From: an uncultured Nitrososphaerota archaeon
Lineage (GTDB): Archaea; Thermoproteota; Methanomethylicia; Culexarchaeales; Culexmicrobiaceae
Assembly (NCBI GenBank): GCA_964462875.1
Contig: CAYWZQ010000009.1
Location: 3,618 to 67,617, forward strand
Length of the DNA stretch: 64,000 bases
Reading direction: 5' to 3'
Shown: positions 7,042 to 39,084 of the stretch, in pieces
Layout: the number at the start of each line of letters is the position of its first letter
Position numbering within the stretch: the first letter of the stretch is position 1
Program-made: the position numbers and the translations under genes
The notes under the pieces: generated by a model
The model's input: the letters and a program-made list of their open reading frames with translations, nothing else
What the model was told of the DNA's origin: nothing
Database searches by the model: none

Positions 7042-7043
7042 AA

Positions 7044-23085: not shown

Positions 23086-23928
23086 ATGAAGCTGATAGGT
23101 AAAGCCATTAAAACCAAGTACTGGCTACCAGGAGAAGATTTTGAAAAATACATTGTCGCTGTAGCAGAAAGAGTCGCCGAAAACGGAGATATAATAGTTA
23201 TTTCGGAGAAAGCAATATCAGTTGCACTCGGCAATTTGATAGATGAATCTCAAATTAAACCATCCAAGTTTTCGATGATAATAACTTATATACTCATGAG
23301 AATTCTATGGGCTTGGATCCTTGGACCCCTTTGCAGATTCAAGTTAAAAACCATAAATTTCCTAAGGACCTACCCCATTAAAGAGGGAGCTGCACATAAG
23401 CAAATATGCCTTAAAATTGCAGGTCCAATGCAGGCGTTAAAGCATTACTCCGAAGGAGGAATAGATCTAACCAATGTTCCATACAGCTATGCATGTCTTC
23501 CACTTAAAGAAGCTCAAAAAATAGCCGACCAAATAAGAAGGAGAGTTAAAGAGGAAACTGGCAAGAATATTGGAATACTAATTGTTGACAGCGATAAGTC
23601 GTATTCATTTAGGAGGTTGCACATAACATCTAGACCGAACGCTATTAAGGGGATAAAGCCGTTTATGGGAATACTAGCATTCTTGATAGGAAGAGCACTA
23701 AGATGGAAAATTAGGGCAACACCAATAGCAGCTTCAGGAGTTAATTTGACAGTTGATGAAATACTAGATATAGCCGACTTCGCGGATAAGGTTAGGGGGA
23801 GTGGGGCAGGTCCTACTGCATGGGAGATAGCTGAAAGATTTGGCGTTGGGCCAGATGAAGTTACTTGGAAAATGCTTCTATCAGTAAAGCATAAACCAAT
23901 AGTGGTTGTAAGAATATTGCGAAAATGA
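23086..23928 (+). CDS. CofE-like protein (F420-0:gamma-glutamyl ligase family)
   Basis: 'GEDFEKYIVAVAERVAENGDIIVISEKAISVALG', 'GGIDLTNVPY', 'LPLKEAQKIADQIRRRVKEETGKNIGILIVDSDKSYSFRR' line up with the CofE signature blocks. It has an unusual hydrophobic insert, 'MIITYILMRILWAWILGPL'. Confidence 0.55.
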   Translation: MKLIGKAIKTKYWLPGEDFEKYIVAVAERVAENGDIIVISEKAISVALGNLIDESQIKPSKFSMIITYILMRILWAWILGPLCRFKLKTINFLRTYPIKEGAAHKQICLKIAGPMQALKHYSEGGIDLTNVPYSYACLPLKEAQKIADQIRRRVKEETGKNIGILIVDSDKSYSFRRLHITSRPNAIKGIKPFMGILAFLIGRALRWKIRATPIAASGVNLTVDEILDIADFADKVRGSGAGPTAWEIAERFGVGPDEVTWKMLLSVKHKPIVVVRILRK

Positions 23929-24905
23929 GTATGAAAATAGAACACCTTGTAGAGGAGGAATTGAGGAGAGACGAGAACCTGCTTAGAATACTTAAAGAGA
24001 CCCCTGCAGTTGTTGGAGAATTTAGCAATAGAAATCTTTGGGAAAGCTCTCTCAAGCTAATAATCATTTTCAGTGGGGACTATGGGTTAAGAGTATTAGA
24101 AAACATGCTTAATAGTACTGGTCACTGCATTAGCTGCGGTCATTTATGCATTGATAAGCAATGTAAATATGGAAAGTACAGCTTTGCAGACAACATAGTC
24201 GCAGTATATGAAGTACCTCCGCCTAATGAGCTACCTGAAGTAATTGATGATCCACTCAAATACTTGCCAAGCAAGCTTCCAAAAGCTGACTTAGCTTTAG
24301 CTACAGGGCTTCATAGCGATCTATACTTAGAGCTGCCGGAAATCTTGCAGAAAAGCAACATTGATGCACTCATAGTTTTCCGTGAAGATCCGAGAGATGC
24401 ACCTAGAGGGTTGGTTTCAGAGTTGAGAGATAAATGCAGTGAATATGGAATAGAATTTGAAGCACCAAAACCCTCATGCACTCTCAGACCGAGTAATAAG
24501 CAAGTGATAGACAGATTCATAAGAGAATTCAGAATGGGAAAACCACTGCTTAAACTTGACATAGCTGAGATTGGAAATTTAAGGAAAATAACATCTGTGA
24601 AAGTTTATGTGTCAGCTCCATGCGGAACAACATGGTATGTTGCGAGACAAATGCTAAATTATGAAATTAGCTCACTTAATGAGATAGAGCTCAGAAAAAT
24701 GTATGACTTCATAGCATTACACCACCACGCCGCTCCATGTATTGGTTCAATGAGCTATGACCCTGAACTTGGAGATACAATTCTTCACTGGGGTTCATAT
24801 ATTGAGAGAGAAGCATATTTGAGAGCTTTAGGGTTAATTGATGAGCTTAGAAAAACTGTTCAAGAGAGACTTAGGAGGAAAGTGCCATGCACTATTCTAC
24901 AGTGA
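23925..24905 (+). CDS. Conserved Cys-rich protein of unknown function, first of two tandem paralogs (possibly the DUF166/COG1810-like archaeal family)
   Basis: 'IIIFSGDYGLRVLENMLNSTGHCISCGHLCIDKQCKYGKY' and 'ISAPCGTTWYVARQML'. Overlaps the cofE-like stop, which indicates translational coupling. Confidence 0.6.
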   Translation: MSMKIEHLVEEELRRDENLLRILKETPAVVGEFSNRNLWESSLKLIIIFSGDYGLRVLENMLNSTGHCISCGHLCIDKQCKYGKYSFADNIVAVYEVPPPNELPEVIDDPLKYLPSKLPKADLALATGLHSDLYLELPEILQKSNIDALIVFREDPRDAPRGLVSELRDKCSEYGIEFEAPKPSCTLRPSNKQVIDRFIREFRMGKPLLKLDIAEIGNLRKITSVKVYVSAPCGTTWYVARQMLNYEISSLNEIELRKMYDFIALHHHAAPCIGSMSYDPELGDTILHWGSYIEREAYLRALGLIDELRKTVQERLRRKVPCTILQ

Positions 24906-25828
24906 GAAGTGAAGAAGAGGGAATTCAAGAGTTAATGAAGTTACCGGGCATTTCAGTTGGAAGAGAGAGTAACGAGGTTTTAAGGAGTAATATGAAGATT
25001 TGCTTAATAATCTCCAATGATTATGGAGAGAAAATAGTCGAGAATTTAATGAATAGAAGGGGACACTGCAATATATGCTTAGAAAAGTGTATTGGAAAGC
25101 TCTGCAAGTATGGTAAATACGACTTCACACACAATATTCACATAATTAGGGTACCGAGTATTCATGAGTTACCCGAAGTATTGGATGAGCCAGAGAAAAT
25201 ATTGGAGAATAAAATACCTGAGGTAGATCTAGTTATAGCAATGGGTATTCATAATGATTTGTATTTAGCTTTGCCAGAAATTCTCCATAAAAAGGGGATT
25301 AGAGCCCTCATAATCTTCAGAGGGAGCCCATTAGATGCACCTCCAGGAGTTGTAAGGGAAGTCATAGAGCAATGCAATGAGTTTAAAATAGAAGTTGAAA
25401 CTGTGAAGCCACCATGCCTTCTGACACCCAAGAAAAGCAAACCAGTCATAAGCAAATTCATTAAAGAATTCAGAATTGGATATCCAGTACTGGAAGTTAA
25501 AGTAGTGAAGATGGGAAGTAGAGCTAAAATTGAAGGAATTGAAGTGAAGACATCGACACCATGTGGTGCTACTTGGTATATTGCGAGAATGATGCTAGGT
25601 TATGAAGTTAATTTAGAGGACGAGAAGTCCGTAATGGAGATGTGCAGATACGTCGCATCATTACTTCAATCATATTGCATTGCATCATCAGCGTGCGATT
25701 ACGAGTTAGGCGACACGGTGATTCACTGGGCAACCTACATTAGCATAGAATCCTATTTGAGAGCTTTAAACTTGAAAAAGGAATTGAAATATTTTGTTAA
25801 AGAAAGAATTAGGAGAAAAATTACTTGA
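24887..25828 (+). CDS. Conserved Cys-rich protein of unknown function, second tandem paralog
   Basis: Collinear with 23925..24905: 'ICLIISNDYGEKIVENLMNRRGHCNICLEKCIGKLCKYGKY' and 'TSTPCGATWYIARMML'. Confidence 0.6.
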   Translation: MHYSTVRSEEEGIQELMKLPGISVGRESNEVLRSNMKICLIISNDYGEKIVENLMNRRGHCNICLEKCIGKLCKYGKYDFTHNIHIIRVPSIHELPEVLDEPEKILENKIPEVDLVIAMGIHNDLYLALPEILHKKGIRALIIFRGSPLDAPPGVVREVIEQCNEFKIEVETVKPPCLLTPKKSKPVISKFIKEFRIGYPVLEVKVVKMGSRAKIEGIEVKTSTPCGATWYIARMMLGYEVNLEDEKSVMEMCRYVASLLQSYCIASSACDYELGDTVIHWATYISIESYLRALNLKKELKYFVKERIRRKIT

Positions 25829-26813
25829 ATATTGGGATCACTCTTCTACTAAATAGGTCTATTGACTTCCTAACATTTGGACCTATAGGTGACCCTGCAA
25901 CTATCTGCGTTACACCTATTCTGGCTAACTCCTCTATCCTCTTAATGCACATGTCTGGTGTTCCCGTTATTGAGAAGGCATCTATCATCTTCTTGGTAAC
26001 CATTGAAAACGCATCTTTCCATCTAGCTTCGCTCAGTGCTTTCTTAATTTCATTTGCCTCACTAACACTTATTCCATGCCTTTCAAGTATGAACTCTGGA
26101 CTTCCAGCGACAATGAATGCTACAACTCTTGAAGCGGCTTTCATCGCTCTATCCAGATCATCATCTATTGATAGTGAAGTGTATGCGGCAATTTCAATTT
26201 CTTCAATTGACTTGCCAGCTGCCTTAACTCCCTTCTCAATATGCTTCATTGCCTCCTGTATGTCTTTGGGATGTGAAGCGTTTATTAAAACGCCATCACC
26301 ATACTTTGCAGCTATTCTAAGCATTTGAGGCCCTTGAGCTCCAATGTAGATTGGTATTTTACCTGCAACTTTGAAGTTAAATCTTGCCTTCGGAATTCTA
26401 AATACTTTGCCCTCAAATTCAACACTACCCTTCTCAAATAACTGCCTAGCTATCAAGACACATTCCTTCACAGCAGCCACCGGCAACTTCATTTCCACAC
26501 CTAAACTTTCCAATGTAGTCTTGTCTCCTGGACCGACTCCGAGTATTACTCTATTGGGAGCAATTTCACTTAATGAAGCCACTGCTTGAGATGTCATTAC
26601 TGGATTCACGAGGTATGGGTTTGTTACACCTATTCCCAACCTGATTTTGCTTGTGTGTAGAGCTATTGATGTGAGCGTAACGTATACATTTCTATTATTA
26701 TAGTGGTCTGTAACCCATATGTTTTCAAAGCCTCTTTTCTCTGCTTGTATTGCATAAAATGTTGTTTTCCAGAAGGGTTCATAAGGTACGAATTCAATGC
26801 CAAACTTAACCAT
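25821..26813 (-). CDS. mer: F420-dependent 5,10-methylenetetrahydromethanopterin reductase
   Basis: 'KFGIEFVPYEP', 'WVTDHYNNRNVY', 'GVTNPY', 'LGVGPGDKTT', 'IPIYIGAQGPQML', 'INASHPKD' and 'GVTQIVAGSPIGP' align block for block with Mer. Confidence 0.85.
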   Translation of the reverse strand: MVKFGIEFVPYEPFWKTTFYAIQAEKRGFENIWVTDHYNNRNVYVTLTSIALHTSKIRLGIGVTNPYLVNPVMTSQAVASLSEIAPNRVILGVGPGDKTTLESLGVEMKLPVAAVKECVLIARQLFEKGSVEFEGKVFRIPKARFNFKVAGKIPIYIGAQGPQMLRIAAKYGDGVLINASHPKDIQEAMKHIEKGVKAAGKSIEEIEIAAYTSLSIDDDLDRAMKAASRVVAFIVAGSPEFILERHGISVSEANEIKKALSEARWKDAFSMVTKKMIDAFSITGTPDMCIKRIEELARIGVTQIVAGSPIGPNVRKSIDLFSRRVIPIFK

Positions 26814-27186: not shown

Positions 27187-27996
27187 TTGAAAATAGCTAT
27201 AACTGGCAAGGGTGGAGTTGGGAAAACAACAATTGCAGGTACACTTGCGAGGTTATTTGGTAGAACAGGCTTTAAAGTTATAGCTGTTGATGCAGATCCT
27301 AACACTAATCTAGCTTACACGCTTGGACTATCACATAGTATTGCATCTAAAATTCAGCCTCTAGCAGTTAATAGGAGACTTCTAAAAGAGCGTATGGAAG
27401 TTTATCCAGGAAGCCTTGATCAGGGATTCTTTAAGCTTTACCCTAAGGTTGATGACATAGTTGATACTTATGGTGTCAAGTGCCCGGATAACGTTACGCT
27501 CTTAGTTATGGGTACAGTTAGAGATGGAGGAACGGGATGTCTATGTCCAGCTCATGCACTTATGCGTGCAATATTAAGACACTTAATTTTAAAGACAAAC
27601 GAAATAGTAATTCTTGATATGGAAGCGGGGATAGAGCATTTAGCGAGAGGGACTGCGAGAGGTGTGGATTTAATGATAACTGTTGTCGAGCCGAATATGA
27701 AGGCAATAGATACTGCATGTAGAATTAAGAAGTTAGCATATGATATTGAAGTGAAGAGAGTTGCAGCAGTAGGTAATAAGGTTTCGTGTGAGGAAGAGAA
27801 GAGGTTTATTGAGGAAAGTTTAAAGTCAACTAAGCTTGAACTGCTCCAATTAATACCCTACGATGAACATGTAAAAATTGCCGATATGAAGAGAGCTTCA
27901 ATATTAGACTTGTACCCCAACTCACCGGTTGTAAAGGCAATTGAGGAATTGAGGAATAAGATAGTTGAAGTTATTTGGAGGAACCCTTCAACTTAA
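27187..27996 (+). CDS. cooC: CooC/AcsF-family nickel-insertion ATPase (CODH/ACS maturation factor)
   Basis: P-loop 'ITGKGGVGKTT', 'DADPNTNL' and the 'GCLCPAH' CxC metal motif typical of CooC. TTG start. Confidence 0.85.
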   Translation: MKIAITGKGGVGKTTIAGTLARLFGRTGFKVIAVDADPNTNLAYTLGLSHSIASKIQPLAVNRRLLKERMEVYPGSLDQGFFKLYPKVDDIVDTYGVKCPDNVTLLVMGTVRDGGTGCLCPAHALMRAILRHLILKTNEIVILDMEAGIEHLARGTARGVDLMITVVEPNMKAIDTACRIKKLAYDIEVKRVAAVGNKVSCEEEKRFIEESLKSTKLELLQLIPYDEHVKIADMKRASILDLYPNSPVVKAIEELRNKIVEVIWRNPST

Positions 27997-28321
27997 TCCA
28001 TAACTCCCTAACCATGTTCGATCCCATGGACTTAACTTCCTCCCATAAATGCTCAACCTCTTCACTGTATCTTCCACTCTTAATACACTCCTCATACTTA
28101 CTTAAGAAGCTGAACACAAGCCCTATCATAGGATGCTTGAAGAGCTGCAATTGCTCTTTCATAACATTAACTTCACGGATAATTGCTGATTCAACAACCT
28201 TCTCGTCACCTATAATATCTCTCAGAATAACGTTTCCATTACTGAACTTTGCGTATACAATGTCTGTCCCTACATCCTCAATTGAATCAATGCTCTTAGA
28301 TATCACCTTAAACTCGCACAT
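27971..28321 (-). CDS. CooT-like putative nickel-binding protein with a C-terminal extension
   Basis: If started at the internal 'MCEFKVISKSIDSIEDVGTDIVYAKFSNGNVILRDIIGDEKVV', it matches the CooT 'MC...KV' N-terminus with the conserved Cys2. It then carries ~55 extra C-terminal residues. The track ORF starts 4 codons earlier, at 28333. Confidence 0.45.
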   Translation of the reverse strand: MCEFKVISKSIDSIEDVGTDIVYAKFSNGNVILRDIIGDEKVVESAIIREVNVMKEQLQLFKHPMIGLVFSFLSKYEECIKSGRYSEEVEHLWEEVKSMGSNMVRELWIKLKGSSK

Positions 28322-28353
28322 GCAAATCACCAAAAATAGACACCATTCACCGC

Positions 28354-28383
28354 TTAAATTTTTAGCGATAGCTAAAAATTTAA
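28354..28383. promoter_or_regulatory. Perfect 13-bp inverted repeat with a 4-bp spacer, TTAAATTTTTAGC-gata-GCTAAAAATTTAA. Candidate operator overlapping the TATA/BRE region of the divergent cooT-like and rnfB-like-fwdB-like-hdrA promoters.
   Basis: Read directly from the sequence. The arms are exact reverse complements. It sits about 55 nt upstream of the ATG at 28438 and about 20 nt upstream of the cooT-like start. Confidence 0.5.
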
Positions 28384-28437
28384 TACGATGTTATGTAAAA
28401 TCCCTATGAGAGAAGGTAAAGTGCAGGGTTGTGGGAT

Positions 28438-28902
28438 ATGGTTAAACTCAATCCAATGCAGATATTCAAACTGCTACCAAGAACAAATTGTAAAAAATGT
28501 GGTTATACGTGTATGGCATTTGCAGTTAAGCTTCTACAGAAAGAAGTTAGACTGGAGGATTGCGAGCCACTCTTCACGGATCCAAAGTATTCTAGTAACC
28601 TCGAGAAGCTGAAAGAGCTATTAAAACCTCTATTTGAAGCTGCTGAGACATTGATTAAAATCGATGAAGAGAAGTGCATTGGATGCGGTAATTGCATAAT
28701 TGCATGCCCAGCTAATGTTAGTATTGACCCTGAAGTAGGTAGAGGCATTAATCCGGTTAATGAGGAGGTAGTGTTCACCGTAATTGATGGTAAAATTAAG
28801 GTTTTAAACCTTGAGAAGTGTCGAAGATATCCTCCCCATAGAATGAACTGTAGGATATGTGAGGAAGTTTGCTTTAGTGGAGCTATTAAGGTGGTTGCAT
28901 GA
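28438..28902 (+). CDS. RnfB-like iron-sulfur protein: N-terminal CFeSP/RnfB-type [4Fe-4S] domain plus a 2x[4Fe-4S] ferredoxin domain (FwdG-like)
   Basis: 'LLPRTNCKKCGYTCMAFAVKLLQKEVRLEDC' follows a CX2CX3CX16C pattern like the CdhE/RnfB N-terminal domain. It is followed by 'CIGCGNCIIACP' and a second cluster motif. The track starts at the TTG at 28429. Confidence 0.7.
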   Translation: MVKLNPMQIFKLLPRTNCKKCGYTCMAFAVKLLQKEVRLEDCEPLFTDPKYSSNLEKLKELLKPLFEAAETLIKIDEEKCIGCGNCIIACPANVSIDPEVGRGINPVNEEVVFTVIDGKIKVLNLEKCRRYPPHRMNCRICEEVCFSGAIKVVA

Positions 28903-30149
28903 AGAAGTTTACTAATGTAGTATGTACTGGATGCTCTCTTGCATGTAGTGACCTAGTTGTTGAAGTTGAAGATAGTAGAGTGGAAAGGGTTTGGGGAGCT
29001 TGTAGCCATGGAGTAAAGCGTATAAAGGAGCTACCTGCAAAAAGATTGAAAAGTAATTTAAGTGTAAATGAATTGATCGACAAGGCGATTGATCTATTGA
29101 GAAAATCGAGAAAGCCCTTAATTTATGGATTTACTTCAAGTACAATTGAAACCATAAAAATAGGTCTATCGATCGCTGAAAAATTGAATGGAGTTTTTGA
29201 TAGTGAGCCAAGTATATGTCAACTACATATACCAATATCATTTGAAGTAGGCTTAAAGGAAGTTGGATTCGAAGAAGTTCTCGAGAAATCAGACTTCATA
29301 ATATACGCCTTCACCAACATAGCCAGTACTCATCTCAGACATGCAAGCAAATACGCCGTCTATCCTAGAGGGGAGTATGTTAAATCTGGTAAGGAGAGCA
29401 GAATTGTTATGACAATCAACTATAGAATGAATGATACCACTAAAATAGCTCAGCACAACATTAAAGTGGAGCTCGGTAAGGAAGTTGAAGCAATAGCTTC
29501 ATTGAAGAAGCTATTAATCGACGAAGAGCTGAAAGCGTCAGAGAAACTAGGTTTAACACGAGAAGCAGCCCTCCTCTTACTTAATGACTTTAAAGCTTCA
29601 ACTTACACCTCAATATTCGTGGGGCACCATCTACTATCTAGCATTTCAGCTAAAGAAGCCTACCACGAGATAGCTAGTCTCGTAAAAGAGATTGAAGAGA
29701 GAAAGGTTGCTACTTTAATACCACTTGCTGAAGAACTGAATTCCATGGGGGTAGCTAGAATTCTCTATGAAAAATATGGTGCCACACATGCATTAGAGTT
29801 CAAGAATGGGAAAGCGGAAAGCAATCCTACAGTTACAAGTGCATTTTCGAAGTTGATGAGGGAAGAGTTCGACTTAGCACTAATCGTTGGAAGCGATTTA
29901 TTTACATGCATCCCGCTTAGTGTAGCTGTAAAGCTTAAGAAGATACCAGTAATCTATGTTGGGTGTAGGAAAACTTTAATCTCAAAAGTTGCCAATGTAA
30001 GCATCCCAACTTTAATAGTCGGATTAGAGAGTGGAGGAGAGATAGTCAGGTCTGATGGTGTCAGAGTAGAGCTTACTCCGTTTCTAAATCCCCCACCAAG
30101 CATTTTAAGTGAAGAGGAGATTTTAAGTGAGATTTTAAGAGGGCTCTAG
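28899..30149 (+). CDS. Formylmethanofuran dehydrogenase subunit B-like molybdopterin oxidoreductase (second FwdB/FmdB paralog)
   Basis: N-terminal 'NVVCTGCSLACSDLVV' CxxCxxxC [4Fe-4S] motif as in FwdB. ~416 aa matches FwdB length. Assignment is at family level only. Confidence 0.55.
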   Translation: MKKFTNVVCTGCSLACSDLVVEVEDSRVERVWGACSHGVKRIKELPAKRLKSNLSVNELIDKAIDLLRKSRKPLIYGFTSSTIETIKIGLSIAEKLNGVFDSEPSICQLHIPISFEVGLKEVGFEEVLEKSDFIIYAFTNIASTHLRHASKYAVYPRGEYVKSGKESRIVMTINYRMNDTTKIAQHNIKVELGKEVEAIASLKKLLIDEELKASEKLGLTREAALLLLNDFKASTYTSIFVGHHLLSSISAKEAYHEIASLVKEIEERKVATLIPLAEELNSMGVARILYEKYGATHALEFKNGKAESNPTVTSAFSKLMREEFDLALIVGSDLFTCIPLSVAVKLKKIPVIYVGCRKTLISKVANVSIPTLIVGLESGGEIVRSDGVRVELTPFLNPPPSILSEEEILSEILRGL

Positions 30150-30150
30150 A

Positions 30151-32520
30151 TTGGTGGCGGGTAGAGATCTAAAGATTGCAGTTCTCATATGCAGGTGCGG
30201 CACAAACATAGCTGGAGTAGTAGATGTCGATTATTTAGTTAAAGAGATATCGCGTGTTGATGGCGTGGTTTGCTATGAGCATGAACACTGGTGTAGTGAA
30301 GATGGACTTCTCAAAATGCGTGAAGTAATTAAAGATGAAAAACCAGATAGAGTAGTCATCGCGGCTTGCACGCCACATCTGCATGAAGAGCTTTTCAGAG
30401 AAAACGCTGAGAAAGCTGGTTTAAATGGTGGATACGTGAAAGTAGTCAACATAAGGGAGCAATGTAGCTGGGTTCATTATAGAGAGCCGAGGAGAGCAAC
30501 CATTAAGGCTTTAGAATTAATTAGAGCTGCTATTGCAGCTGCTCCTTACTTTAGTCCCATTAAGAAAATTAAAGTTCCCATTACTAAGAAAGCTCTCGTA
30601 ATTGGAGGTGGAGTTTCCGGAATAACAGCTTCACTCTCACTAGCTGAAAAAGGTATTGAGGTTTATCTCGTGGAAAGAGAGGGATTCCTTGGAGGCCATA
30701 TGGCTAAACTTGATAAAGTTTTCCCAACAATGGACTGCAGCATTTGCATTCTTGGGCCATTAATGTCGAAGACTTACTCTCACCCTAAAATTAAAGTTTT
30801 AACGTTAAGTGAAGTGAAGGAAGTTGAAGGTGTACCAGGCAACTTCAGAGTTAAGATATTGAAGAGACCGAGATATGTTGACGAAGATAAGTGTAATGGA
30901 TGTAATAAGTGCTTGGAAGTATGCCCAATAGAAGTTCCAAATGAATATAATTATGGGCTAGGATACAGGAAGGCTATTGTGAAACCAGTTGCTGAAACTG
31001 TTCCAATTGCACCATACATTGACATGAAAAACTGTATTCTATGCATGTCATGTGCTGGAGTTTGCGAAAAAGAGGCAATAGATTTTGATCAGAAAGAAGA
31101 GCTTATAGAGCTCAACGTGGGGACAATAATTCTAGCGACAGGATTTGAAATTATAGATCCAAAGGAACTTGAAGAGTATGGTTATGGCAAATTTAGAAAT
31201 GTCATTTTAGGTATCGAATTGGAAAGACTTGTTAACCCGGATGGGCCTACAAGGGGTAGGGTCATTAGAATAAGTGATGGAAAGCCCGTAAGACGGGCAG
31301 CAATAATTCTATGTGCTGGATCCAGAGATGAAAGACACCTCCCATATTGTTGCAAGTTTGGTTGCATGGCCGGATTAAAACACGCAGTTTACTTAACAAG
31401 TTTAATTCCAAAAATTGAAGTTTACATTTTATATACGGATATTAGGGCAGCAGGTAAAGGATTCGAGGAATTTTATCAAAGAGTTAGGCGACTAGAAAAC
31501 GTCCATTTCATTAGAGGCAAGCCTTGTGAAATACTTGAGGATAGTGATGGAAGCATTAAAATACAAGTGTTTGACACCATAGCAGAGGAGCTATTTGAAC
31601 TGAAAGTCGATTTACTAATTCTTGAAGCTGGAATTGTACCTTCAAAGGGAACTAGCGAATTGTCGAAAATGCTTAAAATACCATTAAGCCCTGAGGGATT
31701 CTTCATGGAGTTTCATCCAAAGCTGAGACCAGCTGAAACATTTATTCATGGAGTATTCCTTGCTGGTGCATGCCAAGGACCAAAAGACATATCTGATAGC
31801 GTGTCTCATGCGGGCTTAGCAGCCTCTAAAGCAGCAACTCTGTTAATGTCTGAGAGCTTGGAGCTCCAAGTCCAAGCACCAGAAGTTGACACAAATAAAT
31901 GTGTTAAGTGCGGGCTCTGCGTTATATCCTGCGATTATAATGCCATAAAATTGACTAGAGAAGGCCCGGTGATAGCAACTGAACTCTGCGGTGGATGTCA
32001 AGCATGTGTAGCAGCCTGTCCTACTGGAGCGCTCAAACCAGTAGTGGATTTGAGTAATGAAGCAATATCAGCTATGATAGGGGAGCTGTTAAGGGAGAAG
32101 AGCGAGTATCCATTAATCATAGTGTTTGCATGTAAGTGGTGCGGTTATGAAGCGTTAGACTATGCGGGTGTAAATAGAATACCATATCCGACCGGTGTGA
32201 GAGTGATAGAGGTTACATGCTCTGCTAGAGTTAATCCAATACATATCCTCGAAGCATTGAAACTAGGTGCTGATGGAGTACTAATAATTGGGTGTAGAGA
32301 GCAAGACTGCCACTATAGAACTGGAAGGATTAGAGCCAATAGAAAACTTAATGCTTTAAAGGAAGCTCTAAAGCTTATAGGGATAAATCCAGATAGAGTT
32401 AAGATCATTGGTGCAGGGGCATCTGAAGGCGAAGAAGCAGCTAAGAAAATAACTGAATTTATTGAGGAAATAAAGAAAATTGGACCTTTAGGAACCGAAT
32501 TTGGGCGGGAGAAACTGTGA
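30151..32520 (+). CDS. hdrA: Heterodisulfide reductase subunit A with a C-terminal MvhD-like domain (HdrA-MvhD fusion)
   Basis: N-terminal Cys-rich domain, FAD fold 'ALVIGGGVSGITASLSLA', inserted and C-terminal 2x[4Fe-4S] motifs, and C-terminal 'ACKWCGYEALDYAG...CSARVNP...IIGCREQDCHY', which is MvhD-like. Confidence 0.85.
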   Translation: MVAGRDLKIAVLICRCGTNIAGVVDVDYLVKEISRVDGVVCYEHEHWCSEDGLLKMREVIKDEKPDRVVIAACTPHLHEELFRENAEKAGLNGGYVKVVNIREQCSWVHYREPRRATIKALELIRAAIAAAPYFSPIKKIKVPITKKALVIGGGVSGITASLSLAEKGIEVYLVEREGFLGGHMAKLDKVFPTMDCSICILGPLMSKTYSHPKIKVLTLSEVKEVEGVPGNFRVKILKRPRYVDEDKCNGCNKCLEVCPIEVPNEYNYGLGYRKAIVKPVAETVPIAPYIDMKNCILCMSCAGVCEKEAIDFDQKEELIELNVGTIILATGFEIIDPKELEEYGYGKFRNVILGIELERLVNPDGPTRGRVIRISDGKPVRRAAIILCAGSRDERHLPYCCKFGCMAGLKHAVYLTSLIPKIEVYILYTDIRAAGKGFEEFYQRVRRLENVHFIRGKPCEILEDSDGSIKIQVFDTIAEELFELKVDLLILEAGIVPSKGTSELSKMLKIPLSPEGFFMEFHPKLRPAETFIHGVFLAGACQGPKDISDSVSHAGLAASKAATLLMSESLELQVQAPEVDTNKCVKCGLCVISCDYNAIKLTREGPVIATELCGGCQACVAACPTGALKPVVDLSNEAISAMIGELLREKSEYPLIIVFACKWCGYEALDYAGVNRIPYPTGVRVIEVTCSARVNPIHILEALKLGADGVLIIGCREQDCHYRTGRIRANRKLNALKEALKLIGINPDRVKIIGAGASEGEEAAKKITEFIEEIKKIGPLGTEFGREKL

Positions 32521-33800
32521 GCATTGAAAAACCAACTTTACAGTTAATAGAATTCAATCACATCATAAAGTATGAGTGGGTAGCTCCGAAGCTTATTAAG
32601 AGATTGAAGTACTTTAAAGATAAATGCAACGGCTGTGGATTATGCGTAGAAGTTTGCCCTGTAAATGCAATAATGCTTGGTCCCGTAAAAGAGGTTGCAT
32701 CTGGAGAAATGGAGGCACCACTAATAATAATCGATGAAACCAAATGCATAGCGTGCCCTTTATGCATGCTGATATGTCCATTAAATGCCATAGTACTTGA
32801 ACACGAAAAGATACTTGAGTACCCAAAAGTTGAAGGTGAAATCAAAGTAGATAAGGAAAAATGCATACCGTGCCTGTTATGCGAGAAGATATGCCCACTT
32901 AAGGCCATAGAGGTTGAAGTTAAAGTTCCTAAAAAGGATGAACTTGTTAAGTACGTGTCTGATGAAAAATGGGCCGAGGGGTCCATATTTATAAACGAGG
33001 AAAAGTGCGTTTACTGTGGACTTTGTGAACTGCTGTGTGATGCTATAAAAATTTATTGGAGCGAACCAAAACCGCCAGAGTATAGGCCAGCACTTGGCAT
33101 TGTAATTGACGAAAGTAAGTGTGATTACTGTGAGCTATGTGAAGAAATATGCCCAGTTGATGCAATTAAGGTTGAATGCACTTCTTCAGCCCCAAGAAAA
33201 ATATTTAAAGTATCGATATCTGGTGAAGTTAAAATTGATAGAGATAAGTGTGTTTATTGTGGTTTATGCGAACATGTCTGTCCAGTTGAGGCGATGGAAG
33301 TTGAGAGAGCACTTGAAGGTAGAATTGAGCTAGTGAACTTGGAGAAATGCGATCCATCAGGATGCAAAAACTGCATCAACATTTGTCCAACTAATGCAAT
33401 ATTCGCGAGAAAAAAGGAGAAAGGTATCAGTATTAGCGATAAAAGTTGTATATACTGTGGAGCCTGTGAAAATGCTTGTCCGGAGCAGGTAATTGAGGTG
33501 AGAATTTCTAAGATTAAAGTTAAAGGAAGGAAAAGTCCGCATGACGAAGCTTTAAGGAAGCACTTAATGAAGGTTATTGAGGACTATGAAATTCCTAAGC
33601 CAGAGATTTACATTAGAGAAGTTAAGCCTCCGGAAATTAAAGTAGAATTACCTGAGGCTATGGAAGTGCCTCCTAAGCCTGAGGGGTACGATACTGCAAG
33701 AAAGGCTATTGACGAGTTACTAGGGCACTTACGGAGTAGTAAGACGAGAATTCTACTTGAATTAGGGAAAATAGATAAATTGAAGGAGGTTATAGTTTGA
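32517..33800 (+). CDS. Polyferredoxin with 8 predicted [4Fe-4S] clusters (FwdF/MvhB-like)
   Basis: Eight CxxCxxCxxxCP-type motifs, for example 'CNGCGLCVEVCP', 'CIACPLCMLICP', 'CVYCGLCEHVCP', 'CIYCGACENACP'. Confidence 0.85.
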   Translation: MSIEKPTLQLIEFNHIIKYEWVAPKLIKRLKYFKDKCNGCGLCVEVCPVNAIMLGPVKEVASGEMEAPLIIIDETKCIACPLCMLICPLNAIVLEHEKILEYPKVEGEIKVDKEKCIPCLLCEKICPLKAIEVEVKVPKKDELVKYVSDEKWAEGSIFINEEKCVYCGLCELLCDAIKIYWSEPKPPEYRPALGIVIDESKCDYCELCEEICPVDAIKVECTSSAPRKIFKVSISGEVKIDRDKCVYCGLCEHVCPVEAMEVERALEGRIELVNLEKCDPSGCKNCINICPTNAIFARKKEKGISISDKSCIYCGACENACPEQVIEVRISKIKVKGRKSPHDEALRKHLMKVIEDYEIPKPEIYIREVKPPEIKVELPEAMEVPPKPEGYDTARKAIDELLGHLRSSKTRILLELGKIDKLKEVIV

Positions 33801-33811
33801 AGCACCTTCAA

Positions 33812-34204
33812 TTACTGTTCAGGTGAAATTAGTGAAATTAAGCTGGTTAGTGAGGTACATAGCGCTGGCTTAACTGTGACCTTAATTCGCCCGTAAACTG
33901 GATGCCCTTCACTACTAACTATTGGTGGGATTAGGGCCATAGACCAAGGACTAAGGGGCATTATTATTAGCCCTTCCTCAATGTCCTCTTTACTGAAAGC
34001 TTTAACTACGACTTTTGAGGTCATGAATGAAAGCTCTATGCAATCACCATCTTTAATGCCAAGTTTCTCCATATCAGTTTTTGATAGAAAAGCTAACGCA
34101 CAGAATTTCACATATTCATCACTGCAAGTACTGATCTTTGATGCTAACTCTTGGTCGTGTGTACGCTCAATTAGTAATGTGAGCCTTAGCATTTCACTCT
34201 TCAC
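33812..34204 (-). CDS. FwdD-like protein (molybdopterin-dinucleotide-binding barrel domain), standalone
   Basis: 'LRLTLLIERT', 'MEKLGIKDGDCIELSF...KVVVKA' and 'IIMPLSPWSMALIPPIVSSEGHPVYGRIKVTVKP' parallel FwdD 'GMPHFKG...VKIE'. Overlaps the cdhE stop. Confidence 0.55.
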   Translation of the reverse strand: MKSEMLRLTLLIERTHDQELASKISTCSDEYVKFCALAFLSKTDMEKLGIKDGDCIELSFMTSKVVVKAFSKEDIEEGLIIMPLSPWSMALIPPIVSSEGHPVYGRIKVTVKPALCTSLTSLISLISPEQ

Positions 34205-35630
34205 TCTTTTCCCCGAAAACTTCTGGAATCCATACTTTATCTATAAACTTCTTTATATTGGCAGAATCTCTTGGACCGACGAATACTCTCCAATCCTTAA
34301 GCATATCTTCTAATTCACCACTTAAACGAGCTGCATAGCCCGGCAATATGATTGTCTTATGCTTTACCTTTTCAGCTAAATTGAATTCTTGCACTGCTTC
34401 AGCTATCTTATCTGATGTGAACTTCTTACCTGCAACAGCAGATTCTACGCTTATACCTTCAGTATCGATGACGAGGAGCCATGCATCGATTTTCGCTTTT
34501 TCAACATCATCCTTGACTAAGTAGTATGTTAATGCGAAGTTTCCAGTTACTAGTAGCGGTGAGTTTTCATTAGGCTTTCCAATCTCGTAGAGGCCGGGCT
34601 TAACTGATGGTGGTACTCTTGGGTCGGTATATACGCAATCTCTCCACACAATTACTGGTAGTATGGGCCAGACATCAGTACTGTGCATTATAAGGATGTC
34701 AGCATATCTTGACATTAGGGATGATGCAATTATCGATTCAATATATGCTTTTTCCTCCGGAGACTTCTCCTTATCAAGCCAAATAACTGCTGGTACACCC
34801 AGAAGTGGATAGCCAAGAAGCTCATCGCCTTCCTCTATAGCTGCGTATCGAAGAGCACTGAATAAGCTTATAGTGTCAATTATTGAATCTCCTAGGTTAG
34901 TTCCTGGATCAAGAACTAGGTCGTCAAGACCGAAGTGTTCTTTCAAAGACTTAACAAGTGATCTTAGAAGGTCAGGATTTCCCGGTGCTGATACGACAAG
35001 CGGGCATTTGTATTTAATCGATAAATTCGCCACATCCTTCCAGTTCCTTTCGTTTGCAGCATATATTAGTGGCTTTCTATCCTTAGCTACGATTAAAGCT
35101 TCTTCAAGCACGTTCGGATCGTAAGAGCATAGAATGAAAGGTTTAGAGGTTAACTTCATGACTCTTGAGACTACTTTTGCAAACTTCTCTGGTATGCCCG
35201 AAACGCATCTAATGGCTAATCCATCAAGTGTTAGCTCCTTTCCTATTCTAATATATTTGAATTCATTTACGAACTTCACTCTCTTACTTATCTCATCTTC
35301 GTCCATTTCATCATGAATATCAATCATTATTGCAGTTTGAAATCTCCATGTCCATTCATGCCTGTAAACTACATCTTTTCCGCCAATTTTTACTTCATGG
35401 GGAGGGACACCGAAAAGTACCTCCTTAACTGGTGGACGAATCAGTTTTAGCAGTTCTTTTAACTTTGAAGCGTATCTTGGGTCTCTAAATAGAGGTTTAC
35501 ATTTTTCAACTGAAACCTCTCTTTCTATTAATTTACTGGCAAAAGCCATACAGCTTTTCTCTCCACATTCACCGCAGTTAGTTTGAGGTAGATATCGATA
35601 AACTTGAAGTGGATTCAATCTCTTGGGCAT
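34194..35630 (-). CDS. cdhE: ACDS/CFeSP gamma subunit (corrinoid iron-sulfur protein large subunit)
   Basis: N-terminal 'LPQTNCGECGEKSCMAFASKLIEREVSVEKC' [4Fe-4S] motif followed by a TIM-barrel corrinoid domain. 478 aa. Confidence 0.85.
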   Translation of the reverse strand: MPKRLNPLQVYRYLPQTNCGECGEKSCMAFASKLIEREVSVEKCKPLFRDPRYASKLKELLKLIRPPVKEVLFGVPPHEVKIGGKDVVYRHEWTWRFQTAIMIDIHDEMDEDEISKRVKFVNEFKYIRIGKELTLDGLAIRCVSGIPEKFAKVVSRVMKLTSKPFILCSYDPNVLEEALIVAKDRKPLIYAANERNWKDVANLSIKYKCPLVVSAPGNPDLLRSLVKSLKEHFGLDDLVLDPGTNLGDSIIDTISLFSALRYAAIEEGDELLGYPLLGVPAVIWLDKEKSPEEKAYIESIIASSLMSRYADILIMHSTDVWPILPVIVWRDCVYTDPRVPPSVKPGLYEIGKPNENSPLLVTGNFALTYYLVKDDVEKAKIDAWLLVIDTEGISVESAVAGKKFTSDKIAEAVQEFNLAEKVKHKTIILPGYAARLSGELEDMLKDWRVFVGPRDSANIKKFIDKVWIPEVFGEKSEE

Positions 35631-35642
35631 AAATATCCCTCC

Positions 35643-36926
35643 CTAATACTTTGCAGTAACCCAGCTTTCATACCCAGCTTCACTTAATGGCTTCCTCACC
35701 TTCTTTAGTGCTTCAGCGAACATTCTTATGGTGCGCATTGCTCTTGGATGCAACATCATAAATAAATCCGTGCCAGCTAGTAGAGCAATAATAGCTGTTG
35801 AGACCTCCCAGAGAGGCCCTCTAATCTCTCTAGGTCCAAGTGATGGATCCTTACTTCTAGCTTCTCTTGCAGCCCATGCATTTGATGAGGCCGAGCACAT
35901 AGGTACTTGAAGTACTTCCTCTCCTAGCAGAGCTGAAAGTCTAATTCTCTCCATTATACTGAATGAATATTCAATACCGTAACCCAAGGCGCCAGTGGTT
36001 GGATCTAAAATTATTCTATTCTTTGGTAGACCTGCCTCCATAGCCTTCCTACAGAGATCCTTAGCTTGGTTAATATCTATGAAAGCGAGTGCTATCACAT
36101 CGTGACCATGCTCTTTTATTGGCTTGACAGCTTTCTCGATGTTCATGTCAAGTGTTATTGAGTTAAATACTATACGCTCACCTGCAGTTACTTCAGCAAG
36201 TTTAGTAAAGAGCTTGACATCTTTTTCAGGATCTCCGGAGCCACCAATGATTAATGGTACTTTAACTGCTTGGAGCACGTTCTCAACTACCTTAGCAGCT
36301 TCACTGACAGGCGTATCTTTTATTCCCGGATCAGTGCTTATCAAGTGCAATGAGATGATGTCCGCGCCGAATTTCTCAACTGCAACCCTGGCCCACTCAG
36401 CAGGATCATTTATAGCATCACCATAAATCTCCCTTACTGGCCGAGGGGCAGACGGCATGTCGAATACGTCTAAAGTAGCAACCATTGGATTTGGTGGTGT
36501 TTCAGCAAATAGGAAGAATGGCATTGATGATGATCCACCAACCTTAATAATGTGACTCCTAGTGCCACCTTCACTTTTTGTTGCTCCAATTGTAACTTCA
36601 GCTATCTTACCTTTGAATGGTAGTTTTGGATACTCAAATTTTACTTTAATGAGCTCTACAGGTTTAGGCTTTGCTGGAGGAGCTGGAGGTAGCGATATTA
36701 ATCTAACACCTTGAGGTGAAGCCTCAACTAGTAACTCTAACTTACTAGCTCCAGTTAGAGGTTCGAGGGTTAACTTAAAGTAACCGGGCATTTGGGGTGC
36801 TTGAGGAGGTATGAAAGTTACTGTTAATTCATCAGCATCAATAACTACGTCAGTTAACTCTATCTCCTCAGCTTCTGAAATTAAATTAAGCAAATCTTTG
36901 AAGGCTTTCCTCTTATGTTCCTCCAC
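35643..36926 (-). CDS. cdhD: ACDS/CFeSP delta subunit (corrinoid iron-sulfur protein small subunit)
   Basis: 427 aa. Position and size match cdhD in the cdhABCDE order. No cysteine-cluster motif, as expected. Confidence 0.7.
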   Translation of the reverse strand: MEEHKRKAFKDLLNLISEAEEIELTDVVIDADELTVTFIPPQAPQMPGYFKLTLEPLTGASKLELLVEASPQGVRLISLPPAPPAKPKPVELIKVKFEYPKLPFKGKIAEVTIGATKSEGGTRSHIIKVGGSSSMPFFLFAETPPNPMVATLDVFDMPSAPRPVREIYGDAINDPAEWARVAVEKFGADIISLHLISTDPGIKDTPVSEAAKVVENVLQAVKVPLIIGGSGDPEKDVKLFTKLAEVTAGERIVFNSITLDMNIEKAVKPIKEHGHDVIALAFIDINQAKDLCRKAMEAGLPKNRIILDPTTGALGYGIEYSFSIMERIRLSALLGEEVLQVPMCSASSNAWAAREARSKDPSLGPREIRGPLWEVSTAIIALLAGTDLFMMLHPRAMRTIRMFAEALKKVRKPLSEAGYESWVTAKY

Positions 36927-37082
36927 TTTGCCTACCCCTCTCCCTGGAAATTATCATTTTATTTGCCCTAATCTCTACACCTTCAAGTTCCACTACGTAG
37001 TTCCGCTTTAGCAAATTAGTAATGAAGGATATTAAATCTGATAATGGTTCCTCAGCTTTCTTCTCGGATTTCTCACTCAATA

Positions 37083-38519
37083 CTACTTCCCACCAGCTTT
37101 CTTTATGATTAGTTTATTAATCTTAATCTTGACACCTTTAAGTGCTATCTTAAATGGTACTGCCGAAGCTGCGGGTTGAATTGGAACTGTCGGTATTTGA
37201 GGAGCAGTTATTGGGGTGACCTCTGGAGCAGCTGTAGGTGCTGCTGGTGGTGCAACTTCAACAGCAGCTGCTTCTTCGGCTTTAGCTTTTTCCTCCATCT
37301 CCTTAATTTTCTCAGCTAGTGGATGCCCTCTCTCAATTAGGAACTTCTTTAACTCCTCAATGTCAGTTGCATCTTCCTCAGTTGCAATTTTATCGTATAG
37401 ATCTGGTGGAATAGCATCCTTCACTCTTTCTTTAAGCTCCTTGGGCATCCACACTATGCGTTTCCATCCACCATCAGCGTAGAAGAACTTCCTTGACCTC
37501 ATCCACTCAATTCCAATACCCAGGAAACCTTCAGTTTGCATTCCACCACCAGCTTGAGCCGCCATAGTTGAGAAAGGTAGCCCGTTTACTGCTGTTCCCT
37601 TGAATCCTCTATGAACAATACCTATGCCGTCAACTTCAGGAATGTAGAAGGCTATTGCCTCAAAGCATCCGCATGAAGTGTGCGGGTAGCCAAACATGCT
37701 ATATAAGTATACCCTCTTAACTTCACCTAGAGACCTCTTCGCAACTACCTCGTTTACCCCACTCCATTCTCCCTTAACTGGATCCAAGCATTCCCCTTTG
37801 GGAATTGGAAAGTTAGGACCTTTGGGATCTATATTTGCTGCAGCTCTAGCGTCAAGCCAAGTTAATGCACCACAAAGGGCTACTCTTTCAGGAGTTATTA
37901 CACATACATGCGTTGGAGCGAATGATTGGCAGAGAACACAGCCATAGAACATGTCCACTTCCTCATCCTTTAATCCACGAACTCTAGCATCACGCTTCTC
38001 GTATACCTTTAATGCCTCTTGATACCATTTCTTCACTTCTTCAGGGTCAGTTATGAAAGTTACTTGCATCTTCTCTATGTAGGGCATTTCAGACTTGAAT
38101 AGTAGTATTAGAGCTTTCCCCCACCACTTTAAGGAATTTAACCCTTTCTTAACTGCTTTCTTCGATATTCTAATCCAAATATCATACCTCTGGTTTAAGT
38201 GCATTATTCCTTCAATGTAATTCGTGTACATGTGAATTCGACGCTCAATGACTCCTTCAAGGTCTTCCTCAAGCTTCTTACCAGCTACATATATTAAGAT
38301 TCCGAGGGGATATGATCCGCCCTCCTTGAGCTCCATTAGGTCTGGGCCTATAATCTCGACTTTTCCATCTTCAACTTCATCTAATGGCTTAACCCTCACT
38401 AGCTCAAACTTATAGTCTATCTTGGGGCCTCCAAGTTCAACATACATATTTTTTCTTCTAACCCTCTGACCTTCAAAGGCAGGACTTATCTCTACCGGGA
38501 AGTCTTTAAAAGCTGACAT
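37083..38519 (-). CDS. cdhC: Acetyl-CoA synthase (ACDS beta subunit, A-cluster)
   Basis: 'CQSFAPTHVCVITPERVALCGA' and 'HTSCGCFEAIAFYIP' form the Cys-Gly-Cys A-cluster motif. It ends with an Ala/Pro-rich linker and a Lys-rich tail. Confidence 0.85.
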   Translation of the reverse strand: MSAFKDFPVEISPAFEGQRVRRKNMYVELGGPKIDYKFELVRVKPLDEVEDGKVEIIGPDLMELKEGGSYPLGILIYVAGKKLEEDLEGVIERRIHMYTNYIEGIMHLNQRYDIWIRISKKAVKKGLNSLKWWGKALILLFKSEMPYIEKMQVTFITDPEEVKKWYQEALKVYEKRDARVRGLKDEEVDMFYGCVLCQSFAPTHVCVITPERVALCGALTWLDARAAANIDPKGPNFPIPKGECLDPVKGEWSGVNEVVAKRSLGEVKRVYLYSMFGYPHTSCGCFEAIAFYIPEVDGIGIVHRGFKGTAVNGLPFSTMAAQAGGGMQTEGFLGIGIEWMRSRKFFYADGGWKRIVWMPKELKERVKDAIPPDLYDKIATEEDATDIEELKKFLIERGHPLAEKIKEMEEKAKAEEAAAVEVAPPAAPTAAPEVTPITAPQIPTVPIQPAASAVPFKIALKGVKIKINKLIIKKAGGK

Positions 38520-38522
38520 GCT

Positions 38523-39068: not shown

Positions 39069-39084
39069 GATTTCACCTCCAACA

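Follow-up and report, generated by a model that had tools for sequence, protein, structure and literature searches.

Archaea that run the Wood-Ljungdahl pathway without making methane, Bathyarchaeia, Culexarchaeia and Thorarchaeota among others, need electrons of about -500 mV for carbon monoxide dehydrogenase/acetyl-CoA synthase (CODH/ACS) and formylmethanofuran dehydrogenase (Fwd). In cytochrome-free methanogens, CO2 reduction is paid for by flavin-based electron bifurcation at heterodisulfide reductase (Hdr). A stretch of 64,000 nucleotides from an uncultured archaeon of the Culexmicrobiaceae (contig CAYWZQ010000009.1, assembly GCA_964462875.1; the whole stretch is called the window here) encodes a compact cluster in which an HdrA-MvhD fusion stands together with homologues of the Fwd subunits B, D, F and G, immediately beside the CODH/ACS genes. 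It is plausible, though somewhat short of probable, that these five genes specify an Hdr-Fwd-type bifurcation module, orthologous to the Fwd-Hdr system of Methanonezhaarchaeia, linked to CODH/ACS and serving Wood-Ljungdahl CO2 reducers, in which the FwdBD-like end has been remodelled. A cdh-tied HdrA/polyferredoxin/FwdBD-like module, found in several phyla, is a concrete and testable candidate for the source of such electrons.

The cluster opens with four genes on one strand, encoding a ferredoxin, a FwdB-like protein, the HdrA-MvhD fusion and a polyferredoxin (coordinates in Table 1), all of them present where an original prediction, made from the letters of the sequence, had placed them. By open reading frame (ORF) coordinates, genes 1 and 2 overlap by 4 nt, as do genes 3 and 4, and a single nucleotide separates gene 2 from gene 3. 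This packing of HdrA-MvhD with B-, F- and G-like Fwd subunits agrees with the earlier view of a single unit. A gap of 95 bp precedes the ferredoxin gene and reads as AT-rich by eye. The FwdB paralogue had also been described as tied to HdrA-MvhD; since this linkage is kept in distant archaea, it is not a chance juxtaposition. Overlooked at that stage were a fifth, FwdD-like gene on the opposite strand and the surrounding cdhABCDE, cooC and cooT genes. The polyferredoxin and FwdD-like genes stand tail to tail with 11 nt between their ORF ends, and the start of the FwdD-like gene overlaps the cdhE stop by 11 nt, so that the cdhA-B-C-D-E string closes with it. What most sets the module version of the window apart is how closely, and how repeatedly among its relatives, it is tied to cdhABCDE. 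Selenocysteine is ruled out in the cluster proteins, as all ORFs are uninterrupted.

The HdrA-MvhD fusion is the flavoprotein of the cluster. Residues 8-629 match the HdrA chain 5odc_A with 627 bits, and the region 654-780 corresponds to MvhD/FlpD (Pfam FlpD domain at 656-778, 1.6e-44; MvhD chains at about 1e-28), which confirms the assignment of the third gene as HdrA with an MvhD-like C-terminal domain. Both parts match the PDB entries 5odc, 8rvu, 7bkb and 9sfi. The protein combines a thioredoxin-reductase-like core that binds flavin adenine dinucleotide (FAD) with inserted and C-terminal ferredoxin domains and the C-terminal MvhD part, and contains four CxxCxxCxxxC motifs. On the HdrA2 model NF040770, positions 1-776 of 777 are aligned, with a score of 945.4 bits that lies under the cut-off of 1100. 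The product of the fourth gene is, as foreseen, an eight-cluster polyferredoxin, with eight four-Cys motifs and closest similarity to FwdF/FmdF. In the PDB it comes closest to 9sw6_H, 7bkb_K and 5t5i_F (about 1e-50); it scores 254 bits on the FwdF model NF042909, under the cut-off of 375, and ends in a Cys-free extension of about 85 aa.

The ferredoxin is more unusual in its composition. Gene callers start it at ATG 28438 (154 aa), as opposed to TTG 28429 of the longest ORF, and the ATG is likely the true start, since the resulting 154 aa equal the length of the homologues and align with the N-terminus of CdhE. PF04060 covers residues 16-47 (4.8e-12), Fer4 motifs follow C-terminal to it (Pfam), and 12 Cys residues in three four-Cys groups are sufficient for three clusters. 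The C-terminal half, a 2x[4Fe-4S] domain, is closest to FwdG (5t5i_G, 9sfi_U), and the N-terminal 75 aa are closest to the N-terminus of the large subunit of the corrinoid iron-sulfur protein (CoFeSP; 9fzy_F, 1.5e-6). The protein had been described as an RnfB/CdhE-type domain joined to a 2x[4Fe-4S] ferredoxin; the CdhE/CoFeSP part of that description stands, while the likeness to RnfB is far weaker (E = 0.55).

The FwdB-like protein aligns end to end with TIGR03129 (288.6 bits, under the equivalog cut-off of 327.8), matches PDB FwdB chains at 1e-49 to 1e-37 and is 31% identical to the canonical FwdB of the window. A Pfam scan gave no match for it, PF00384 included, unlike for that canonical FwdB. 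The CxxCxxxC motif noted earlier is present as C9-x2-C12-x3-C16...C35, and its four Cys are invariant in all groups. The AlphaFold2 (AF2) model has a pLDDT of 89.9, is confident through both active-site loops and, by Foldseek, reaches template modelling (TM) scores of 0.83-0.86 to FwdB chains versus 0.63 to FhcB.

Canonical active-site residues were numbered as in Methanothermobacter wolfeii FwdB, using alignments to 8rja_B, 5t5i_B and 7bkb_H that are ungapped and confident at both loops. Cys107 aligns with the tungsten-ligand Cys118 and is invariant in the protein's own clade, so that the 416-aa protein does hold the equivalent of the Mo/W Cys ligand for which the original prediction had proposed a check. 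The residues around it have changed. Specifically, Gln108 stands at the His119 position (SICQ versus canonical SVCH), and PMR288G289H290YN has become PLA277E278E279LN, replacing Arg288, Gly289 and His290 alike. Across 16 distinct sequences of the clade, S105, C107, P275, A277, E278, N281 and G284 are invariant at a mean column identity of 0.57; the altered site is thus fixed and not decaying. As far as the alignments go, the active-site region of the FwdB-like protein is thus still under constraint within its clade.

The FwdD-like protein matches PF01568 (6.4e-8), scores 55 bits on the FwdD model NF042908 and finds FwdD/FmdD chains in the PDB (7bkb_J, 5t5i_D, 8rja_D). It carries Met at the Asn of the PW[AS]N motif, an Asn kept in canonical, Kor-, Loki- and Methanothrix-type FwdD. 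In the Fhc homologue, loss of the D subunit goes with loss of the pterin, and D is needed for pterin retention (PMC11656701). The FwdB-like protein of the window may bind a tungsten or molybdenum bis-pyranopterin guanine dinucleotide cofactor (W/Mo-bisPGD), which is favoured by Cys107, D132, D325, G375, G380 and the FwdD-like partner, and disfavoured by the Asn-to-Met change in that partner. The four Asp and Gly residues are kept in the window clade and lost in Thorarchaeota homologues without the Cys; only these few columns separate the two. Retention of the columns that are invariant in canonical FwdB, taken as a proxy for pterin binding, is not discriminating, at 58% in the window clade, 64% in Cys-less homologues and 54% in the Thorarchaeota. 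Because Arg288 and His119 are replaced, and because sister lineages dropped the Cys and kept the module, the sequences suggest that the FwdBD-like pair of the window is not a classical CO2/formate site and would be a remodelled terminal or relay subunit.

A pattern-based scan of GTDB genomes, whose choice of two peptide patterns biases the sample, gave 80 related loci, which were annotated by ORF calling, BLAST against the window references and motif extraction. When 1.84 billion representatives were searched with a profile, close relatives numbered no more than a handful before the scores ran into those of ordinary FwdB. The set of ferredoxin, FwdB-like protein, HdrA/MvhD and polyferredoxin is conserved down to 29-38% identity, and the module occurs in metagenome-assembled genomes (MAGs) of Culexarchaeia, Bathyarchaeia, Nezhaarchaeia, Korarchaeia-like archaea, Hecatellales and Thorarchaeota. 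The relatives include a MAG labelled Methanomethylicota/'Nitrososphaerota' (61%) and Culexmicrobium and Bathyarchaeia MAGs (52%). In a neighbour-joining (NJ) tree, which carries no support values, the HdrA-linked B-like proteins form one clade apart from canonical FwdB.

Four kinds of locus can be told apart. The first, that of the window clade, has the motifs SIC[QHR] and P[LM]AE and always the order ferredoxin, FwdB-like, HdrA/MvhD, polyferredoxin, with the FwdD-like gene in convergent orientation. Next comes cdhEDCBA in the window, the Methanomethylicota-labelled MAG (61%), Ca. Culexmicrobium and one Bathyarchaeia MAG, and hdrC-hdrB in Nezhaarchaeota/Nezhaarchaeales MAGs, one Thermoprotei MAG and hot-spring metagenomes. 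The second kind comprises Kor3, Hecatellales and eight Thorarchaeota loci with cdh adjacent; here, the FwdD gene faces polyferredoxin and HdrA/MvhD, and this block is divergent from ferredoxin and FwdB-like. In the Thorarchaeota loci, ferredoxin, FwdB-like, cooC and cdhABCDE are co-directional. The FwdB-like proteins of Thorarchaeota (L045, L066, L070, L072, L075, L081, L082, L083) and Hecatellales (L014) have Gly or Tyr at the ligand Cys and have also lost D132 and G375, while the [4Fe-4S] motif, the FwdD-like partner and cdh adjacency are kept. The third kind (Loki-, Hel-, Hod- and Odin-type) consists of ferredoxin, FwdB (SICQ/GGH), FwdD and a FwdA-like gene, and the fourth (Methanothrix, Methanoperedens) of ferredoxin, FwdB (SFCQ/VGH) and FwdD only. 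Arg288 is lost in all four kinds; CH...RGH occurs only in canonical FwdB.

Adjacency to cdh is thus seen in four gene arrangements (window/Culex/Bathy type, Kor3, Hecatellales and Thorarchaeota). Genes for both HdrB and HdrC occur in L004, L005, L010, L011, L012, L015, L055 and L086, and, as far as the available flanks extend, no cdh-linked locus contains hdrBC. None of the examined loci has a FwdA or FwdC gene in a radius of about 6.5 kb around the FwdB-like gene linked to HdrA. In two further lineages the module stands with hdrCB or by itself, and a FwdD-like gene is missing from the 8 kb around it. Wherever both are present, the FwdD-like and polyferredoxin genes stand tail to tail, in 18 of 18 distinct loci (the window at 33800-33812, L001, L004, L005, L007, L008, L010-L013, L045, L055, L066, L070, L072, L075, L081 and L082), with ORF ends between +11 and -35 nt apart. 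This pair spans Thermoproteota to Thorarchaeota despite rearranged surroundings; coupling by antisense or at termination might account for it, or the two genes may just have been paired for a very long time.

Several of these loci show features of their own. In L001, the closest relative (61%), HdrA is divided at 11259-13620 into a 562-aa core and a 226-aa ferredoxin-MvhD protein, either because the gene is genuinely split or, possibly, through a frameshift of the MAG sequence. In L086, a Fer4_11 and NrfD-type membrane pair (15492-17272) lies 1.2 kb downstream of the module-hdrC-hdrB string, all on one strand, with desulfoferrodoxin and rubrerythrin upstream. The stand-alone loci of the methanogens and methanotrophs Methanothrix and Methanoperedens (L024, L032, L033, L039, L041, L044 and others) consist of the FeS-ferredoxin, a FwdB-like protein with SFCQ and VGHYNMRG, and FwdD; their FwdB-like protein has an Arg five residues downstream of the canonical Arg288 position. 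The Asgard ferredoxin-FwdB-FwdD-FwdA-like clusters (L016-L062, of Loki-, Hel-, Hod- and Odin-type; for example L021, 9474-13352) keep the HxH, Lys and His ligand positions in the FwdA-like protein, with Asn aligned to the Asp of TTDHPN in the FwdA of the window, which would be the catalytic beta-8 Asp. No FwdC was found near these clusters, and they may not be ordinary formylmethanofuran dehydrogenases. Their use as proof that an Arg-less FwdB makes formyl-methanofuran was rejected, given the Asn for Asp and the missing FwdC.

Around the cluster, the window is rich in C1 genes (Table 1). cooC and cooT lie directly 5' of it, in an order shared with the relatives L001 and L008. The canonical fwd genes, a D-B fusion with A and C, lie 18.7 kb downstream, in keeping with the distance of about 19 kb given in the original prediction; they have neither fwdF nor fwdG alongside and are flanked by ftr, mtd and mch. 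With mer, ftr, mtd, mch and fwd, the methyl branch that depends on tetrahydromethanopterin (H4MPT) is completely encoded in the window, which also has a gene for a subunit of ADP-forming acetyl-CoA synthetase. In the 64 kb, blastp at E<1e-5 finds neither HdrB nor HdrC homologues, and no hydrogenase-like ORF was seen in the window translations, which were read by eye only, with no motif or profile search for hydrogenase. The earlier statement that hdrBC and mvh are missing from the locus holds to this extent.

Table 1. Features of the 64,000-nt window (positions in the window)
Feature	Position	Strand	Product or size	Basis
Ferredoxin gene (gene 1)	28429-28902	+	157 aa (longest ORF)	PF04060 FeS domain, then two four-Cys motifs
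FwdB-like gene (gene 2)	28899-30149	+	416 aa	Full-length TIGR03129 match
HdrA-MvhD fusion gene (gene 3)	30151-32520	+	789 aa	NF040770, 5odc_A and FlpD matches
FwdF/FmdF-like polyferredoxin gene (gene 4)	32517-33800	+	427 aa	Eight [4Fe-4S] motifs
FwdD-like gene	33812-34204	-	130 aa; domain IV (molybdopterin dinucleotide-binding)	PF01568, NF042908
cdhE, cdhD, cdhC, cdhB, cdhA	34194-41445	-	CODH/ACS	ORFs and translations, L001 Pfam labels, reciprocal BLAST
cooC	27187-27996	+	cooC-type Ni-insertion ATPase	CbiA/NifH-type P-loop match
cooT	27971-28333	-		PF10133 match
Canonical fwd: fwdD-fwdB fusion, fwdA, fwdC	48885-53201	+		CH...RGH active-site motif
Paralogue beside cooC-cdhA	42371-43399	-	about 350 aa	Motifs DFIET and GS-IL...SD-DLIVYG
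Paralogue beside mch	54163-55239	+	about 350 aa	Motifs DFIET and GS-IL...SD-DLIVYG
cofE, two DUF166 genes, mer	23086-26813			
rad50, mre11, herA, unknown gene, nurA	1646-8929	-		
SdhA/fumarate-reductase-like flavoprotein gene	8952-10568			

The closest published counterpart is the Fwd-Hdr system of cultured Ca. Methanonezhaarchaeum YNP3N (Kohtz et al., Sci Adv 2025; PMC12700198). YNP3N has FwdBD, FwdF and FwdG beside HdrABC, encodes a canonical FwdABCD, whose B and D are fused, apart from these among its Wood-Ljungdahl genes, and is proposed to possess a putative 'Fwd-Hdr' complex that couples formate oxidation to heterodisulfide and ferredoxin reduction. The window likewise has a second FwdB/FwdD, FwdF and FwdG with hdrA, plus a separate canonical Fwd with fused B and D; the YNP3N cluster is the hdrBC-linked form of this module, and the cluster type is therefore already published. 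Nezhaarchaeota/Nezhaarchaeales loci (L010, L015, L055) share the gene order and the C...AE signature of the window. They differ in that hdrC-hdrB follows directly there, whereas the window lacks hdrCB, abuts cdhEDCBA and has cooC/cooT upstream; the FwdB-like proteins are only 36-38% identical. Neither the Arg288/His119 replacement nor cdh-linked forms are mentioned in the searched passages of PMC12700198. No description of the cdh-linked form was found in literature on Culexarchaeia, Bathyarchaeia, Verstraetearchaeota, anaerobic methanotrophic archaea (ANME) and HdrA diversity, in a search outside subscription journals, and the Culexarchaeia paper makes no mention of Fwd. New relative to the literature found are thus the cdh-linked, hdrBC-less version with its Asgard spread, the fixed loss of Arg288 and His119 with the Cys kept, and the convergent geometry of the FwdD-like and polyferredoxin genes.

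Structural precedents come from the Fdh-Hdr-Fmd and Mvh-Hdr-Fmd/Fwd supercomplexes (7BKB, 9SFI, 9SW6; PMC13580544, PMC13518236), whose HdrA, MvhD, FmdF/FwdF, FwdG, FwdB and FwdD all have homologues in the window. In contrast to them, the locus lacks a donor enzyme (Mvh or Fdh), HdrBC, FwdA and FwdC; its MvhD is fused to HdrA, its G-like protein has an extra CdhE-type FeS domain, and its B-like protein is without His119 and Arg288. A recent structural paper recognises FmdF homologues of TACK archaea as related to the FmdF that bridges to Hdr in class II methanogens, and asks for Hdr complexes from TACK archaea to be solved (PMC13580544). The fusion architecture is shared with Methanosarcina acetivorans HdrA2 (MA2868), of the type that works with HdrB2C2 and oxidises F420H2, as seen in the full-length NF040770 alignment; there, a polyferredoxin gene stands beside hdrA, and hdrBC is possibly unlinked (PMC9012536). 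FwdB- and FwdD-like genes are not reported for MA2868, however, and the window protein falls under the cut-off (945 versus 1100).

Altered formate-dehydrogenase-family subunits associated with Hdr are also known. ElpA of Elp-Hdr has a MopB fold, was structurally shown to be without pterin (PMC12350162) and is a precedent for a scaffold or electron relay, and 'Molybdop' proteins without a functional site occur in hdrA clusters of ANME-2 and Methanosarcinales (PMC12054007). The FwdB-like protein resembles these and FhcB in its altered active site and Hdr association. What is missing from these is the Cys ligand and/or either the pterin-binding region or D, whereas the FwdB-like protein still has Cys107, folds over its full length like FwdB and has a dedicated FwdD-like partner. 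Its Thorarchaeota and Hecatellales orthologues do share the Cys loss of the cofactor-less MopB scaffolds. FwdB homologues outside methanogens have been noted before, with no functional analysis (PMC10100899).

Since every part has a counterpart in the solved Hdr-Fmd supercomplexes, the simplest model keeps the same order of parts, with the wiring from FAD to polyferredoxin, G subunit and B cluster as template. In this model, the HdrA2-type flavoprotein would split or merge electron pairs at its FAD, with the fused MvhD [2Fe-2S] domain as adaptor. By analogy, the low-potential branch would run from HdrA through the eight-cluster FwdF-like polyferredoxin and the FwdG-like ferredoxin to the [4Fe-4S] cluster of the FwdB-like protein, and the FwdBD-like pair would be a remodelled terminal or relay subunit and not a classical CO2/formate catalyst. 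The module would make or consume very low-potential electrons for the H4MPT Wood-Ljungdahl enzymes, that is, CODH/ACS and the canonical FwdDB-A-C. These enzymes are suggested as the ones served by the cdh adjacency in four arrangements, the CdhE-type FeS domain and the absence of F and G from canonical Fwd. The high-potential branch probably passes via HdrBC encoded elsewhere in the genome, as its genes are adjacent in Nezhaarchaeia. The sequences show gene content, domain and cluster motifs, fold, active-site substitutions and conserved synteny; a single five-protein complex, its electron donor, the direction of flow, its partners (CODH/ACS, canonical Fwd and HdrBC) and any metallopterin binding are inferred.

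This bifurcation module is supported by the homology of each part to subunits of solved Hdr-Fmd complexes, by the packed gene string and by the conserved linkage. Several points weigh against it. The five-protein complex is deduced from gene order alone, and no hdrBC was found by blastp within the 64-kb window. The NJ tree has no support values, and the census shares the bias of its two scan patterns. The cdh adjacency could in part reflect a general clustering of C1 genes, with mer, ftr, mtd, mch and fwd all in the same window. The invariant Cys107 and the dedicated FwdD-like partner argue that a metallopterin and some catalysis may persist, and the column retention of 58% in the window clade and 64% in Cys-less proteins does not discriminate. 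In addition, the two halves also occur apart: ferredoxin, FwdB-like and FwdD-like stand alone in Methanothrix and Methanoperedens, HdrA2 has only an 'associated polyferredoxin' in Methanosarcinales (PMC9012536), and the halves are divergently transcribed in Thor and Kor. The same observations, together with the absence of a FwdD-like gene from two HdrA-linked lineages, would fit two independent units that merely lie side by side, HdrA2-MvhD with polyferredoxin as a soluble ferredoxin- or F420-linked oxidoreductase, and ferredoxin, FwdB-like and FwdD-like as a separate enzyme. That arrangement is very doubtful, given that no fewer than five arrangements in Thermoproteota and Asgard archaea keep the pairs next to each other, that overlaps and a 1-nt gap tie them into one gene string in the window, and that the HdrA-linked B-like proteins form their own clade.

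What the FwdBD-like pair does is the point on which the other explanations turn. The scheme put forward by Kohtz et al. for the orthologous cluster of YNP3N, which lacks FdhAB and MvhAG next to soluble HdrABC, would have the pair oxidise formate and pass electrons via the FwdG/FwdF-like proteins and MvhD to the HdrA flavin, for bifurcation to heterodisulfide (through HdrBC) and ferredoxin. It agrees with the retention of the metal-ligand Cys107 and of a FwdD-like partner, with a fold that is FwdB-like and not FhcB-like, and with the MvhD domain as the usual docking point of donor modules. For the window it nevertheless appears unlikely: throughout the clade, Ala stands at the Arg288 position and Gln, His or Arg at that of His119, and the residues surrounding the metal are described as conserved between formylmethanofuran dehydrogenases (FMDs) and formate dehydrogenases (FDHs), which is the basis for assuming a common mechanism (PMC11656701); the FwdD-like protein lacks the conserved Asn of PW[AS]N; Thorarchaeota and Hecatellales orthologues lack the Cys; hdrBC is absent at the locus; and in solved complexes FwdF and FwdG sit on the output branch of HdrA and not on the donor branch (PMC13580544). 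The active-site objections apply equally to the original prediction, which saw a self-contained bifurcating or confurcating CO2/formate reductase whose FwdB paralogue reduces CO2 while another acceptor replaces HdrBC, and they leave the CO2/formate-reducing function doubtful. FwdF- and FwdG-like wires do reach the FwdB-like [4Fe-4S] cluster as in Hdr-Fmd supercomplexes, and hdrBC is indeed missing from the cdh-linked loci. Yet with no FwdA or FwdC nearby, the product would be free formate, useless to the H4MPT pathway encoded in the window, and hdrCB lies directly 3' of the module in at least seven loci, so that HdrBC is a normal partner and not a replaced one. The argument that a missing HdrBC leaves the second acceptor without a candidate is weakened by hdrC-hdrB directly after the module in Nezhaarchaeia and two other lineages; HdrBC may be encoded elsewhere in the genome. 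Of that earlier interpretation, the unit and the conserved Hdr-Fwd linkage survive, its CO2/formate function is in doubt and its acceptor argument weakened, and as a whole model it is rated very unlikely.

New W/Mo-pterin chemistry is a further explanation, in which a FwdBD-like site with the Cys ligand and the invariant Glu278, and no Arg or His, would act on a substrate that serves as donor or acceptor for HdrA and might replace HdrBC where the module is cdh-linked. Its invariance within the clade is unlike that of a decaying site, a dedicated D subunit is kept in fixed gene geometry, D132, D325, G375 and G380 are retained where the Cys-less Thorarchaeota lost them, and the AF2 model is confident at both active-site loops. 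It is improbable all the same: the neighbourhood offers no candidate substrate, the column-retention test for pterin binding does not discriminate, and sister lineages lost the Cys and kept the whole module, which suggests that catalysis is dispensable to the core role. Moreover, Nezha-type loci hold HdrBC and the FwdBD-like pair together, making the pair no general replacement for HdrBC. A bolder form of the bifurcation module, also judged unlikely, is an ancient device that, in Thermoproteota and Asgard archaea without methanogenesis, would serve CODH/ACS specifically and work without HdrBC or heterodisulfide. HdrA would then feed or drain the CO2/CO couple directly via the polyferredoxin, the CdhE-type FeS ferredoxin and the remodelled FwdBD pair, whose Cys-plus-Glu site would provide either a new W/Mo reaction or a docking conduit to CODH/ACS. 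If true, such an HdrBC-free device would explain the -500 mV electrons of non-methanogenic Wood-Ljungdahl archaea. If the FwdBD-like pair merely relays electrons, the module extends the known Hdr-Fwd family by a small step. The Arg288/His119 replacement, unaddressed in the searched passages of PMC12700198, alters the choice of a first assay.

Other genes of the window deserve brief mention. The two paralogues of about 350 aa share their motifs, and the one tested has no Pfam match. Upstream of cooC lie cofE (F420 ligase), two tandem DUF166 (DfsP-like) genes and mer, in an order identical in L001. Farther upstream, a complete archaeal DNA-end-resection cluster comprises rad50, mre11, herA (DUF87), a gene for an unknown protein of 220 aa and nurA, and is followed by the gene for an SdhA/fumarate-reductase-like flavoprotein.

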